Of a stretch of 64,000 nt of DNA, positions 3,264-48,153 are shown piece after piece. How positions within the stretch are numbered: position 1 is the first letter of the stretch; the number at the start of each line of letters is the position of its first letter. The stretch lies in assembly GCF_044324785.1 (NCBI RefSeq), contig NZ_CP172127.1; one strand, 5' to 3'. Below the pieces are notes generated by a model, which searched no databases, was not told the origin of the DNA, and was given only the letters and a program-made list of their open reading frames with translations. Both the position numbers and the translations under genes were made by a program. The DNA comes from Escherichia coli (GTDB lineage Bacteria; Pseudomonadota; Gammaproteobacteria; Enterobacterales; Enterobacteriaceae).

Positions 3264-3280
3264 TAAACATCTTCATTTCA

Positions 3281-3307
3281 CAACAAAACGTTATCGACGT
3301 TTTGTTG
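3281..3307 (+). other. Intercistronic stem-loop between the binding-protein and ATPase genes
   Basis: Perfect 10-bp inverted repeat CAACAAAACG-ttatcga-CGTTTTGTTG, 17 bp upstream of the ATPase start. Confidence 0.45.
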
Positions 3308-3323
3308 TGACACCGAGGTCATT

Positions 3324-5834: not shown

Positions 5835-6797
5835 ATGAGTAAGGTCTTCACAATTGGAGAAATTCTGGTTGAAATTATGGCGAGTAAAATCGGCCAGCCA
5901 TTTGATCAACCAGGTATCTGGAACGGCCCTTATCCCAGTGGTGCGCCCGCTATTTTTATCGACCAGGTGACACGTCTTGGCGTTCCGTGCGGCATCATTA
6001 GTTGTGTGGGGAATGATGGCTTTGGTGATATTAATATACATCGTCTGGCTGCTGACGGTGTGGATATCAGGGGGATTTCAGTCTTACCTCTGGAAGCTAC
6101 CGGGAGTGCCTTTGTTACTTATCATAACTCTGGCGATCGCGATTTTATTTTTAATATCAAGAATGCCGCTTGCGGTAAATTATCGGCGCAGCATGTTGAT
6201 GAAAATATTCTGAAGGACTGTACCCATTTTCATATTATGGGTTCATCCCTGTTTTCATTCCATATGGTAGACGCAGTAAAGAAAGCGGTAACCATTGTAA
6301 AGGAGAATGGTGGCGTTATTTCTTTCGACCCTAATATTCGGAAAGAGATGCTCGATATTCCAGAAATGCGTGACGCCCTCCACTTTGTTCTTGAGTTAAC
6401 AGATATCTATATGCCCAGCGAGGGAGAAGTGTTGCTCTTGTCGCCACACTCGACACCGGAGCGTGCAATCGCTGGTTTTCTTGAAGAAGGTGTTAAAGAG
6501 GTGATTGTGAAGCGCGGCAATCAAGGTGCCAGTTACTACTCCGCGAATGAGCAGTTTCATGTTGAGAGCTATCCGGTGGAAGAAGTTGACCCGACCGGTG
6601 CGGGAGACTGCTTTGGTGGCGCGTGGATTGCCTGCCGCCAGCTAGGGTTTGACGCCCATCGGGCATTACAATATGCCAACGCCTGCGGTGCACTGGCGGT
6701 AACCCGACGTGGTCCAATGGAGGGAACGTCTCGCCTTGCGGAAATCGAAGCGTTCATCCAGCGCCATGACATGTCCATTCGGGAAGCAGCACAATGA
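5835..6797 (+). CDS. PfkB-family sugar kinase (ribokinase/fructokinase-like)
   Basis: 320-aa ORF; AAGGA upstream; N-terminal glycine-rich motif and C-terminal DPTGAGDCFGGAW anion-hole/catalytic motif typical of the PfkB family. Confidence 0.8.
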   Translation: MSKVFTIGEILVEIMASKIGQPFDQPGIWNGPYPSGAPAIFIDQVTRLGVPCGIISCVGNDGFGDINIHRLAADGVDIRGISVLPLEATGSAFVTYHNSGDRDFIFNIKNAACGKLSAQHVDENILKDCTHFHIMGSSLFSFHMVDAVKKAVTIVKENGGVISFDPNIRKEMLDIPEMRDALHFVLELTDIYMPSEGEVLLLSPHSTPERAIAGFLEEGVKEVIVKRGNQGASYYSANEQFHVESYPVEEVDPTGAGDCFGGAWIACRQLGFDAHRALQYANACGALAVTRRGPMEGTSRLAEIEAFIQRHDMSIREAAQ

Positions 6798-7840
6798 AAA
6801 ACGAAATTTGGTCGTGGATTGGCGATCTCTCGCAGGTTGCCGGAATTAAACACTATGAGTTACGTAGTGGCAGAGCAAAGGGGACAGAAGCGTTTGATGT
6901 CCGTACCGGTGCGGGACTGGCATTTACGGTGGTAAAAGATCGCGCGCTGGATATTGCATGGGCCAGCTACAAGGACACTGCGCTCTCTTTTATCACCCCC
7001 AACGGCATTGTCGCCCCCGCTTTTTTTGAGTCTCAGGGCAACGGGTTTTTACGTAGCTTCTACGCGGGGTTACTGACTACCTGCGGACTTAGCTACATTG
7101 GCACGCCCTGTGAGGATGACGGAGAAACGCTGGGGTTACACGGGCGTTTGGCTGCGACTCCAGCAGAAGAGGTGGGGTATCGCACAGAACGGACCGACGA
7201 CGGCATTGAATTTGTCATCAATGGCAAAGTACGGGAAACACGATTGTTCGGTGAAAATCTGACGCTGGAAAGGACCATTCGCTGCCGCTATGGCGAAAAT
7301 GTGCTGCGCATTGAAGACAAGGTGACTAATCATGGTTTCACCCGCCAGCCGCTGCAAATTCTTTATCACTTTAATTACGGCTGGCCTTTATTATCGCCAC
7401 AGGCAGAAATTTTGCTGTCGGCTAAAAGCGTAACGCCACGAACTCCGCATGCGGCGGAAGGGATAGCCAGTCATCTGGAGATTTGTACCCCACAGCCCGG
7501 TTTTGACGAGCAGGTTTACTATCTCACGTTGAATAGTGACAGTCAGGGGATGAGTAAAGTTGCGCTGGTGAACGCTGAACTGGGGTGGGGAATTTACGAG
7601 AAATTCGACACCATGCAGCTACCCAACTTTATCCAGTGGAAAAATTTAGGCGCGGGTGAATATGTTATGGGGCTGGAGGTCAGCAATAGTTTTCCTGACG
7701 GTCGTGATAAAGAACGAGCGCAGGGGCGTCTGCCCTTTATAGAGCCAGGGGAAACAAAGACATACTGCTTTGAGCTGGGAATTGTTGATGGCGATGCTGA
7801 AATTAGCGCGTTGAAAGCGGAAATTGCAAGCTACCGTTAG
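6794..7840 (+). CDS. Aldose 1-epimerase (mutarotase)-like protein, uncharacterised
   Basis: 348-aa ORF overlapping the kinase stop by ATGA; contains LYHFNYGWP and GLEVSNSFPD...PGE motifs reminiscent of galactose mutarotase-fold proteins; assignment from motif recall only. Confidence 0.5.
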   Translation: MKNEIWSWIGDLSQVAGIKHYELRSGRAKGTEAFDVRTGAGLAFTVVKDRALDIAWASYKDTALSFITPNGIVAPAFFESQGNGFLRSFYAGLLTTCGLSYIGTPCEDDGETLGLHGRLAATPAEEVGYRTERTDDGIEFVINGKVRETRLFGENLTLERTIRCRYGENVLRIEDKVTNHGFTRQPLQILYHFNYGWPLLSPQAEILLSAKSVTPRTPHAAEGIASHLEICTPQPGFDEQVYYLTLNSDSQGMSKVALVNAELGWGIYEKFDTMQLPNFIQWKNLGAGEYVMGLEVSNSFPDGRDKERAQGRLPFIEPGETKTYCFELGIVDGDAEISALKAEIASYR

Positions 7841-7850
7841 CTAACGGCAA

Positions 7851-7886
7851 TAAAAACGCCGGGCAGCGTTAACAGGCCCGGCGTTG
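7851..7886 (-). terminator. Rho-independent terminator downstream of accC, shared with the convergent sugar operon
   Basis: 10-bp stem AACGCCGGGC/GCCCGGCGTT with 11-nt loop, followed on the minus strand by TTTTTATT. Confidence 0.5.
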
Positions 7887-14731: not shown

Positions 14732-15901
<1,170 letters not shown>

Positions 15902-15966
15902 TCGGATGCAGGCAGGGGAAGCGTCTGTTTACCCTGCCTGGTCTGATACGAGAATACGCATAACTT

Positions 15967-17558
<1,592 letters not shown>

Positions 17559-29446: not shown

Positions 29447-29477
29447 CAAAACCGACGCCAAAAGCGTCGGTTTTTTC
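29447..29477 (+). terminator. Rho-independent terminator of aaeXAB
   Basis: Stem CCGACGC/GCGTCGG with 5-nt loop followed by TTTTTT, 3 bp after the aaeB stop. Confidence 0.65.
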
Positions 29478-32351: not shown

Positions 32352-32386
32352 AAAAAACCGGAGCACAGACTCCGGTTTTTTGTTTT
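32352..32386. terminator. Bidirectional terminator between mdh and degS
   Basis: Stem CCGGAG/CTCCGG with A-run before and T-run after. Confidence 0.7.
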
Positions 32387-37882: not shown

Positions 37883-37910
37883 AAAAAACCCGCTTCGGCG
37901 GGTTTTTTTA
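37883..37910 (+). terminator. Rho-independent terminator of rplM-rpsI
   Basis: Stem AACCCGC/GCGGGTT with TTCG loop followed by TTTTTTT. Confidence 0.75.
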
Positions 37911-45319: not shown

Positions 45320-46652
<1,333 letters not shown>

Positions 46653-46727
46653 ATTTATTAGCTCAGGTGTGACCTGACCCATCTTTGGCACAGAGCCAAA
46701 CCTGAACTGACGGACCGCTCTGTGCCA

Positions 46728-47069
46728 TTACCTGACGTTGTATTCTTTTATGTTAACACCCTTGATGCTGTATATACCTGTCCGCTTAATTCGCTTACCC
46801 TTTTTATTCGTAATAGTTGCTGTAAGTGTACTGCAGCGAATGGAATGACGTTCATCAATCACCAGCCGAATTGCTTCTGAAGCATCTTCCACCTCTAGAA
46901 GGTCGTGAGTCTTATTTAAGCCGAATGGAACAAGGTGGAAGGCAGTTTTTCCAGATGATTTTCTGGTTATTTTTACTGGATACAACACATCACCACTTTT
47001 ATGGATTAATTCAAGCTGTTCAATGTAAATCATAGCAACTTTCCTTCGTTTATCTGCATGAATATACAA
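46728..47069 (-). CDS. Orphan hypothetical protein in AT-rich DNA (113 aa from TTG; more likely 101 aa from the ATG at 47033)
   Basis: ORF in ~40% GC sequence; internal ATG at 47033 has AGGAAA 6 nt upstream; lysine-rich C-terminus; no family recognised; coding status unproven. Confidence 0.4.
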   Translation of the reverse strand: MYIHADKRRKVAMIYIEQLELIHKSGDVLYPVKITRKSSGKTAFHLVPFGLNKTHDLLEVEDASEAIRLVIDERHSIRCSTLTATITNKKGKRIKRTGIYSIKGVNIKEYNVR

Positions 47070-47120
47070 ACCGAAAATAGGAGATGCAATACAAAAGCTG
47101 TGGAAATATCAAACAGCCTC

Positions 47121-47378
47121 TCAATTTGGCAGGCAGCGTCTGCCAAATCTTTGCCGATGGAAATTCTGCAGACGGTGTCTGCAGAACTTCAACGTGTTGA
47201 TAAAAAGGTAAAAAAGCCTAATTTGGCGTAAGTTTTTTGCAGAGAACCCACGCTTATATCTTAGACTTAAATCCTTTGATAGTCGCTTGATTAGCTGCGC
47301 ACCATACGCAGCCCTAGCCTCGCCACCTTGTTCAAATTCGACAATCCGTCGGCCAATTTCCCAGTACGTCGCGGTCAT
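47121..47378 (-). pseudogene. yhcG: Frameshifted, truncated remnant of yhcG (DUF1016 PD-(D/E)XK nuclease-like)
   Basis: First ~57 codons (MTATYWEIGRRIVEFEQGGEARAAYGAQLIKRLSKDLSLRYKRGFSAKNLRQ) read like the YhcG N-terminus; the frame then degenerates and stops at 85 aa while a plausible continuation (LQTPSAEFPSAKIWQTLPAKL) is in another frame; the ~290 C-terminal codons of the 375-aa K-12 protein are absent. Confidence 0.6.
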
Positions 47379-47487
47379 TAACGCGTTAACACTACGTACC
47401 GTTTCCGTCCGGGCACTATCGAACTGGTGAATAATGTCTCCATGTACCCGCTTGTAGCCTAAATATCGCTACTTTATTTTTAACCAA

Positions 47488-48153
47488 TTAATAATATTTC
47501 AGTGTGATTTCCGCTGTGCCACTGAATTCCATCTTGTCCGTAACATTCAACTCCGACATCGCATTAATCGCAGAGCTGATTTTAAGTGGCACAGTTAGTG
47601 TGGTCAGATTTTGCGGTGAAGATGTACCAAATGCGTAAACGGTTGTGTTATCTGGGCTGACGATCTGCCAATTCCCAGTAGACTTTATCCATGTTGGATT
47701 GCTGCTATCAGTTGCTGAAAGTACAGAAACCCCTGTTCCGTTATCGACGGTAATCCCCATATTATCAATCATAATGGCCCATGCTCCGACCGGCTTATTT
47801 TTGAATAACCCCAGCCCCAGCAGGTCGCTTTGTGTTAATGCGCTACCGAGCGGAATTTTTGCCGCCATTGCAGTACCAGAATTGAGATCTTTAATAAGAA
47901 TCCCTGGGGCAGCGCTGCCTGGACAGCTAATTGATAGTTGGGTATTTTGATCTGGTAAGCGTGTGGCATCCTGGGTATTCATATTTGCAACAATATAGGT
48001 TCCAAGATTAATGACGCTATTCGTCAGGTTAATTGAACAGGAAGGCGGTTCCACCAACGCGCTAACATGGATGGTGATGTCTGCGGCACTGACATTGGTG
48101 GAACAGAAAAGCGTTATCAGGCCAATCAGCGATATTTTATTCATGACTATCAC
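47488..48153 (-). CDS. yhcF: Fimbrial-like protein (DUF1120)
   Basis: 221-aa ORF, GTG start overlapping the yhcE stop, signal peptide, C-terminus FSGTAEITLKYY. Confidence 0.75.
   Translation of the reverse strand: MIVMNKISLIGLITLFCSTNVSAADITIHVSALVEPPSCSINLTNSVINLGTYIVANMNTQDATRLPDQNTQLSISCPGSAAPGILIKDLNSGTAMAAKIPLGSALTQSDLLGLGLFKNKPVGAWAIMIDNMGITVDNGTGVSVLSATDSSNPTWIKSTGNWQIVSPDNTTVYAFGTSSPQNLTTLTVPLKISSAINAMSELNVTDKMEFSGTAEITLKYY

Follow-up and report, generated by a model that had tools for sequence, protein, structure and literature searches.

Between the 3' end of nanQ and a convergent orphan open reading frame (ORF), the window (the whole 64,000-nucleotide stretch of Escherichia coli DNA analyzed here) contains a perfect inverted repeat, and the locus raises the question of what this repeat is and how it came to lie there. 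A sequence-only reading had proposed two answers: a bidirectional terminator for the two genes, or a mark of the other edge of a replaced segment. The answer that we consider quite likely involves a non-autonomous cargo transposon derived from an insertion sequence (IS) of the IS481 family: the repeat is a subterminal hairpin in one of its ends, type A, preserved here as a relic.

Geometry and folding of the inverted repeat

The repeat consists of two arms of 11 bp that are 100% complementary and flank a 20-nt spacer, as the sequence-only reading had described:

46686-46696, plus strand: left arm of the hairpin, TGGCACAGAGC (direct sequence and stem analysis of copies)
46697-46716, plus strand: hairpin loop of 20 nt with AACTGAC inside, family consensus AATCTGACAG (column conservation; box seen directly)
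46717-46727, plus strand: right arm of the hairpin, GCTCTGTGCCA (direct sequence and stem analysis of copies)

The position given earlier also agrees with the coordinates. The nanQ stop codon (TAA) occupies 46650-46652, the inverted repeat begins 34 nt later, and the end of the right arm at 46727 directly abuts the stop codon of the orphan ORF (46728-46730, minus strand). The proposed check by RNA folding, run on 56 nt, gave a stable hairpin on both strands, with −21.2 kcal/mol (z = −5.6) on the plus strand and −23.9 kcal/mol (z = −3.8) on the minus strand.

On its own statistics, the inverted repeat is only mildly unusual. Perfect inverted repeats of at least 11 bp with a loop of at most 30 nt occur at five loci in the window where 0.42 would be expected; of random 64-kb sequences from a first-order Markov model, 28% contain at least one. 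The latter figure is what a chance palindrome without history has in its favor. However, the same arms and loop, together with the flanks, are conserved in 88 distinct homologous copies in other genomes, so we regard the repeat as real and the probability of a chance origin as negligible; the homologs already refute it. The four remaining perfect inverted repeats of at least 11 bp in the window (3278-3310, 29448-29474, 32352-32381, and 37883-37908) have A-runs and T-runs, such as AAAAAACCCGC, and short loops, and look like ordinary bidirectional intrinsic terminators.

If the repeat served to end transcription of the convergent nanQ and orphan genes from both sides, its location between their stop codons and its stable folding on either strand would be as expected. 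Nevertheless, neither strand has a T-run and the loop is 20 nt long compared with the 3-8 nt expected, which argues that the repeat is not an intrinsic terminator. A terminator scan makes no call here, while the window's other perfect inverted repeats have A/T runs. The homologous element of phage P2 is read through: in the reference P2 genome (NC_001895), it occupies 15277-15364, three bases past the gene G stop, and the annotated V-operon terminator (15639-15666) lies about 275 bp beyond it. In addition, the element occurs at many places without a convergent gene pair, and its loop is conserved equally with the stem. With these points against it, the terminator claim is improbable and we abandon it. 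The repeat resembles Rho-independent terminators and REP-type palindromes in being a stable extragenic hairpin between convergent genes, but differs from them in its conserved 20-nt loop, its lack of a U-tract, its location inside an 89-bp element with defined termini, and its lack of an Rfam family. A permissive Rfam scan of 46400-47400 gave nothing near any gathering score, and the best overlapping match was CncR1 (13.7 bits compared with a gathering score of 76, E = 2.1).

A foreign segment with an orphan gene between nanQ and yhcG

The window carries nanT-nanE-nanK-nanQ, and this nan region is 98.6% identical to its best E. coli match. Directly past the nanQ stop, the window diverges from K-12, and K-12-type genomes lack the inverted repeat. 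The features of the divergent region are as follows:

46654-47123, no strand: foreign low-GC segment of 470 bp (K-12 comparison, GC profile, and E. coli genome search)
46715-47119, minus strand: orphan-gene cassette, common to Yersinia canariae and Enterobacter cloacae at 84-86% DNA identity (cross-genus alignments)
46728-47033, minus strand: orphan ORF, the cargo gene, 101 aa (113 aa from a TTG at 47069) (family of 37 clusters; dN/dS)
47124-47378, minus strand: remnant of the yhcG N-terminus, DUF1016_N (Pfam PF17761, E = 7.5e-19; alignment to K-12 yhcG)

The foreign segment has a GC content of 36-44% compared with 52-67% in the nan genes, and is found at 98.7% identity in 718 of 5426 E. coli genomes. 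Relative to K-12, it stands in place of the nanQ-yhcG spacer and the 3' two-thirds of yhcG. Its left terminus is at 46654 and its right junction at 47123/47124, where the window rejoins yhcG at about residue 115 of the 375-residue K-12 YhcG. The inverted repeat is thus 32 nt inside the left terminus, and the suggestion that it marks the other edge of a replaced segment was essentially right. In the proposed alignment with K-12, no sequence identical to the repeat was present in the nanQ-yhcG spacer. The K-12 type instead has, 3' of nanQ, a 59-bp spacer with a different hairpin, TTCTGCAGACACTGTCTGCAGAA, followed by full-length yhcG.

The 3' flank of nanQ is variable in E. coli, with at least three arrangements. 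The first has yhcG and the yhc fimbrial genes; the second (EC50, O104:H4, and others) has the same inverted repeat, the orphan ORF, and the yhcG N-terminal remnant, followed by gltD; and the third has gltD directly 3' of nanQ. The window represents a fourth combination of orphan ORF, yhcG remnant, and yhc fimbrial genes. Its layout of nanQ and the orphan gene is shared by E. coli ATCC 8739, O104:H4, and a Shigella. We also observed tandem near-palindromes in the yhcG coding region, ATTTGGCAGnCAGCGTCTGCCAAAT, GAATTCTGCAGACGGTGTCTGCGGAATTC, and AATTCGCCAGACATTGTCTGGTGAATT (window 47124-47190), with motifs of this group also at 1773-1798 and 2528-2640 of the K-12-type locus and at 2779-2807 of the third-type (nanQ-gltD) locus. 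They are resembled by two intergenic hairpins, the one between nanQ and yhcG in K-12 and the one between nanQ and gltD where yhcG is lacking. The right junction at 47123/47124 falls exactly at the first yhcG near-palindrome, and the window lacks 40 bp between the second and third compared with K-12 and EC50. These near-palindromes may be recombination-prone.

The orphan ORF is a real gene of a small conserved family under purifying selection, with homologs in 37 clusters from Enterobacteriaceae and Yersinia and a dN/dS of 0.13-0.23. PGAP labels it 'transposase' (46728-47069, minus strand; WP_000639208.1), a name that lacks support because the ORF has no Pfam or NCBIfam match. An AlphaFold2 model of the protein had a pLDDT of 44.7, too poor for a fold search. 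Homologs that are 82-89% identical occur in Enterobacter and Yersinia beside prophage remnants or an integrase, and homologs that are 59% identical adjoin the N gene of lambdoid prophages (moron). At the DNA level, homology of the cassette to Y. canariae and E. cloacae stops at 46715-46724, within the hairpin loop and right arm.

An 89-bp element at the border of variable cargo

The inverted repeat is part of a longer element whose parts in the window are:

46654-46742, plus strand: transposon end of 'type A', complete at 89 bp and a homolog of the 'left inverted repeat' in the P2 Z-region (nhmmer, BLAST, and alignments)
46654-46678, plus strand: outer terminal repeat TTTATTAGCTCAGGTGTGACCTGAC, a decayed form of the IS481-type terminus TGTATTAGCTCAGAYTTGASCTGAC (consensus match; alignment of IS termini)
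46728-46742, plus strand: inner edge TTACCTGACGTTGTA, family consensus NNAGCGGACGTT, where relatives diverge into unrelated cargo (pairwise breakpoints)

An nhmmer profile of 78 copies matched the window at 46656-46742 (E = 7e-23), and BLAST identity between the window end and prophage copies was 76-81%. The outer repeat agrees with a 25-nt consensus at 22 of 25 positions and is the sole match in the window, with zero matches in shuffles and none expected by chance; its first bases read TTT where relatives have TGT. Across the family, the element is about 89 bp long, with a sharp start, TGTATTAGCTC, and an end, ...GCCANNAGCGGAC(G/A)TT, beyond which the sequences are unrelated. Pairwise breakpoints cluster 37-41 and 45-53 nt past the G of GCACAGA, which corresponds to window positions 46725-46741, and divergence among related copies starts 0-13 nt past the right arm.

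The alignments show the 89-bp element to be conserved as a sequence. Across 88 distinct A ends, the stem was paired in 91% of cells, but covariation did not score above shuffles, a result that is neutral on the folded form; a GC to CG change was seen at only one stem pair, in four sequences. On the first alignment, RNAalifold returned no more than a trivial consensus. Loop columns were as conserved as stem columns, and the AACTGAC of the loop is a repeat, seen directly in the sequence, of the CTGAC box in the outer terminal repeat. Conservation at the sequence level fits a role in protein recognition, as do the repeated CTGAC box and an IS subterminal hairpin that is built from a CTGAC box. 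Our best guess is that the hairpin would belong to the features by which a protein recognizes the end, and that it would offer a second CTGAC box. Given its place at the 3' ends of nanQ and the orphan gene, the hairpin may also, incidentally, stabilize their transcripts.

Relatives of the element are common in mobile DNA. About 350 additional E. coli genomes carry a match, 76-86% identical and in unannotated DNA, to window positions 46656-46740 alone (query positions 3-87). In P2-like prophages, the match directly follows the tail-fibre-assembly gene, and a variable gene and then the tail-sheath gene come next; in an ICE, it lies past an hns-like gene and before a SEC-C-domain gene; and a further site is near a lambdoid prophage integrase. 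In a phage collection, 68 records matched, P2 among them, and BLAST identity to P2, P2-EC58, and P2-EC53 was 77-80%. In three GenBank records of P2 Z-regions (AJ512683, AJ512682, and AJ512676), the matching stretch is annotated as 'left inverted repeat', with a 'right inverted repeat' across the cargo. We scanned IMG/VR with a 15-base pattern from the stem and loop, which returned 120 loci; together with the earlier loci, this made 127 candidate copies, 112 of which had homology along the whole element or most of it. Overall, more than 100 prophages and ICEs carry a copy, about 80% identical, where their variable cargo begins on the left.

Comparison with P2 shows how closely the window copy follows this pattern. 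About 85 bp of the P2 Z/fun 'left inverted repeat' (AJ512683, AJ512682, and AJ512676) are homologous at 77-80% identity, with the same hairpin arms, GGCACAGAG...CTCTGTGCC, and loop, and in both cases the element forms the left border of low-GC foreign cargo with a conserved backbone on the other side. Unlike P2, the window copy follows the core metabolic gene nanQ rather than a phage tail gene, lacks a right repeat, and has a mutated terminal TGT. The sequence of the element has been known since the GenBank records of 2003-2004, and the window copy is a further, decayed member of the family.

The 123 copies that we compared have 25 kinds of upstream backbone context and 77 different cargos downstream. 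Of these copies, 58 share the P2 gpG context, with 33 different cargos; other contexts include the gpS-gpV gap, sites past gpU or gpD, the lambdoid site beside int, and the ICE. No case of the same cargo behind different backbones, a pattern from which crossovers could have been mapped, was found among the 123 copies. The cargo of the relatives is mostly anti-phage, including retron-type reverse transcriptases, AriAB, a CBASS cyclase with 4TM effectors, KwaAB, ThsB, PD-T7-1, and AbiGi. None of the cargo proteins is a dedicated transposase, and no recombinase is consistently linked to the cargo. Since the A end is constant while cargo changes within one backbone (P2 G-FI), cargo turnover there needs a further process, which is probably recombination between ends rather than fresh transposition. 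One P2-like contig contains two type-A ends, at 6580-6668 and 7788-7864, in the same orientation and 1.2 kb apart, each preceded by the same gene G 3' end, an arrangement that indicates a tandem duplication of the G end and A end.

The first description of the P2 Z-region repeats, by Nilsson, Karlsson and Haggard-Ljungquist (Mol Biol Evol 2004, doi 10.1093/molbev/msg223), has site-specific recombination in its title and reportedly favored it. Anti-phage systems are abundant in prophage hotspots, of which the P2 Z/fun locus is one major reservoir among others (PMC9519451, PMC9122126, and bioRxiv 10.1101/2024.10.15.618418). The hotspot studies consulted treat Z/fun as a defence hotspot and make no mention of the repeats or of a mechanism for the arrival of cargo.

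Paired ends, 7-bp duplications and the IS481 terminus

In about 50 loci, a profile search found an inverted copy of the element, partial or full, on the far side of the cargo; in P2, it lies at 17426-17466 and closes a Z/fun module of 15277-17466. Another unit, of 1.6 kb, is found in E. coli NWU_4 (NZ_CP123008, 439368-440995). Three stretches of the inverted, type-B end recur in type A: ~27 nt at the outside, AATCTGACAG in the center, and AGCGGA(C/A)GTT on the inner side. The GGCACAGAG hairpin is absent from type B. The outer tips of A and B ends both face the backbone. Of the related units, 26 have two inverted ends. The window has just one: neither in the window as a whole nor in 46743-47700 did a profile search detect a second. 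In a lambdoid prophage represented by two loci, the integrase gene runs into the B end, whose outer part, TGTACTAACTCAGACACCAACTGA, provides its final eight codons and stop, so the insertion reshaped the integrase C-terminus.

The units are flanked by short direct repeats. Among the 26 distinct units with both tips mapped, the flanking 7-mers were identical in 10, matched at 6/7 positions in 4, and at 5/7 in 1, while the number of perfect matches expected by chance in 26 units is about 0.002. The identical 7-mers all differ from one another (CATAAAT, GATTAAG, ACTGAAC, AATAATT, CATGAAA, ACTAAGG, CTTAATC, ATTTATT, AATAATA, and TTTAAAT). Direct repeats that have a fixed length of 7 bp but differ at each site point to target-site duplications created by transposition, rather than to site-specific recombination. 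The P2-like S-V sites showed no duplication (at most 3/7 matches). In the window, the corresponding position is:

46647-46653, plus strand: GCTTAAA, 7 bp that abut the terminus and include the nanQ stop (position; 7-bp duplications in relatives)

By analogy with the relatives, we infer that GCTTAAA would be the left copy of a target-site duplication whose right copy is missing from the window. Searches with the joined flanks of four insertions returned no empty site, either in two exact IMG/VR scans, in the phage collection, or in E. coli genomes. In the latter, the ICE site yielded only a deletion variant, and all 749 matches to the lambdoid tolA-holin site were occupied; the flanks of a fifth locus gave no usable match there.

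The duplications bear on whether cassettes were instead inserted by conservative recombination at a recombinase site of the integron attC or phage att core type. A hairpin at a sharp cassette border, cargo bracketed by inverted repeats, and a GTT at the inner edge of many copies (in the alignment of 78) are what such a site might look like, and an integron attC is likewise an imperfect palindrome at a gene-cassette border. However, the 7-mers flanking the units differ everywhere, as in a target-site duplication and not a fixed crossover core. The alignment of 78 copies has no attC R''/R' boxes (RYYYAAC ... GTTRRRY) at the ends, and the element thus differs from attC in its lack of R/L core boxes, of a linked integron integrase, and of constant flanking repeats. 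The cargo has no consistently linked recombinase of any kind, and the termini equal those of an IS with a DDE transposase. We judge a recombinase site very improbable. Gin/Hin invertase sites, dif/Xer sites, and P2 Int arm sites, as well as Mu and Tn7 ends and IS200/IS605 hairpins, were also considered and set aside for want of a sequence match.

The terminus connects the family to a known type of transposase. We scanned the 19-nt tip TGTATTAGCTCAGAYTTGA against 100,044 genomes, one per species, and obtained 64 loci, most of them in Enterobacterales and others in Alteromonadales, Shewanella, Massilia, and Collimonas. Many of these loci are small A...B units, and others are an element of about 1.2 kb with a single ORF of 344 aa. 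This ORF encodes an IS481-family transposase (NF033577, 276.7 bits compared with a cutoff of 224; HTH_29 and rve). In 77 E. coli genomes, a full-length relative with 78.6% identity is annotated as 'IS481 family transposase', and the copy in E. coli MEW is flanked by a perfect 7-bp duplication, ACTAAGC. The IS terminus aligns with the A and B termini over about 25-29 nt. We note that the rest of the A and B ends is unlike the IS, and the link consists of the ~29 terminal nt and the equal duplication length. The simplest reading is that the A...cargo...B units would be non-autonomous derivatives moved by an IS481-type transposase. We found no literature connecting IS481 with the P2 Z-region repeats.

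Side by side, the family and the IS481-family IS (E. coli MEW WP_023352515.1; Xenorhabdus anantnagensis) share the terminus TGTATTAGCTCAGAC(C/T)TGA(T/C)CTGACAG of 25-29 nt, and the IS, like the cargo units, makes a 7-bp target-site duplication. A subterminal hairpin, ATCTGACAG...CTGTCAGAT, likewise adjoins the terminal repeat of the IS. Unlike the IS, the window element has no transposase gene and a different hairpin sequence, and the cargo units carry passenger genes and have two ends that both resemble only one of the two IS ends.

These observations also weigh on a more conservative explanation, that the element is a conserved homology patch at which RecA or phage recombinases swap cargo by double crossover, with no role in transposition. 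The constancy of the A end while cargo varies in one backbone (33 cargos behind P2 gpG) fits this explanation, as do the conservation of stem and loop as sequence without covariation and the end of homology between the orphan cassette and other genera inside the hairpin. Yet it leaves three things unexplained: the 7-bp duplications, the presence of the same TGT termini on an IS, and the spread to 25 unrelated contexts. We therefore find it doubtful as a full account; such recombination works better as a second step that acts on ends already placed by transposition.

Under the transposon reading that we favor, an intact unit would have three parts. The first would be an A end of about 89 bp, with the outer terminal repeat TGTATTAGCTCAGAyTTGAsCTGAC, a hairpin with an 11-bp stem whose loop repeats the CTGAC box, and the inner edge AGCGGACGTT; the second, a cargo of 0.3-6 kb; and the third, an inverted, related B end without this hairpin. 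Units insert with a 7-bp target-site duplication and would presumably be moved by an IS481-family DDE transposase supplied in trans. A unit carrying the orphan gene may have inserted directly past the nanQ stop in an ancestor of this genome. Later, the B end, the K-12-type spacer, and the adjacent 3' two-thirds of yhcG would have been lost, and the terminal TGT would have mutated to TTT. What is left would be an immobile relic, inherited vertically and common to 718 E. coli genomes. Of these steps, the data show the homology, the location at cargo borders, the pairing of inverted ends, the 7-bp duplications, and the terminus in common with an IS481-family IS; movement in trans and the sequence of events at nanQ-yhcG are inferred from them.

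Cassettes of this general kind have precedents. Mobile insertion cassettes, MITEs, and 'transporter IS' such as IS231-MIC231 of Bacillus cereus have IS-type terminal inverted repeats and a target-site duplication, and bracket passenger genes without a transposase, with mobilization in trans presumed. The family described here differs from IS231-MIC231 in its IS family, in its long ends (~89 bp) of two types, and in the location of its units in prophage and ICE hotspots, mostly with anti-phage defence genes. While IS-derived cassettes with passenger genes are a known kind, the reading of this family as an IS481-type cargo transposon appears to be new.

For the locus itself, the transposon reading accounts for the orphan segment beside the sialic-acid operon, which would be what is left of a mobile element, and removes one candidate terminator. 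Taken by itself, the relic is of modest importance; the family to which it belongs deserves follow-up. IS481-type termini and 7-bp duplications offer a concrete and testable mechanism for the arrival of cargo, and the 89-bp end provides a sequence signature for finding cargo units in any genome. More speculatively, and as a suggestion we think less likely than not, the 89-bp end and its inverted partner could be the working cis-sites of an unrecognised family of IS481-mobilised cargo transposons that built and still reloads defence hotspots, namely the P2-like G-FI 'Z/fun' site, the S-V site, and the site past D, as well as those of lambdoid phages and ICEs. If so, the turnover of hotspot cargo would be at least partly driven by a transposase, not by site-specific or purely homologous recombination, and a transposition of this sort into the core chromosome would have left the nanQ-yhcG relic as its fossil.

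Traces of the IS were also seen at two other places. In the Pectobacterium fontis M022 assembly, five contigs end exactly at the 19-nt IS terminus, which suggests that a high-copy IS481-family element broke the assembly. In K-12, ylbG (NZ_CP169634 529665-530121), annotated as a helix-turn-helix protein, is 74% identical to the first third of the IS transposase, its N-terminal HTH region, together with the IS end, and looks like a remnant of that IS481-family IS.
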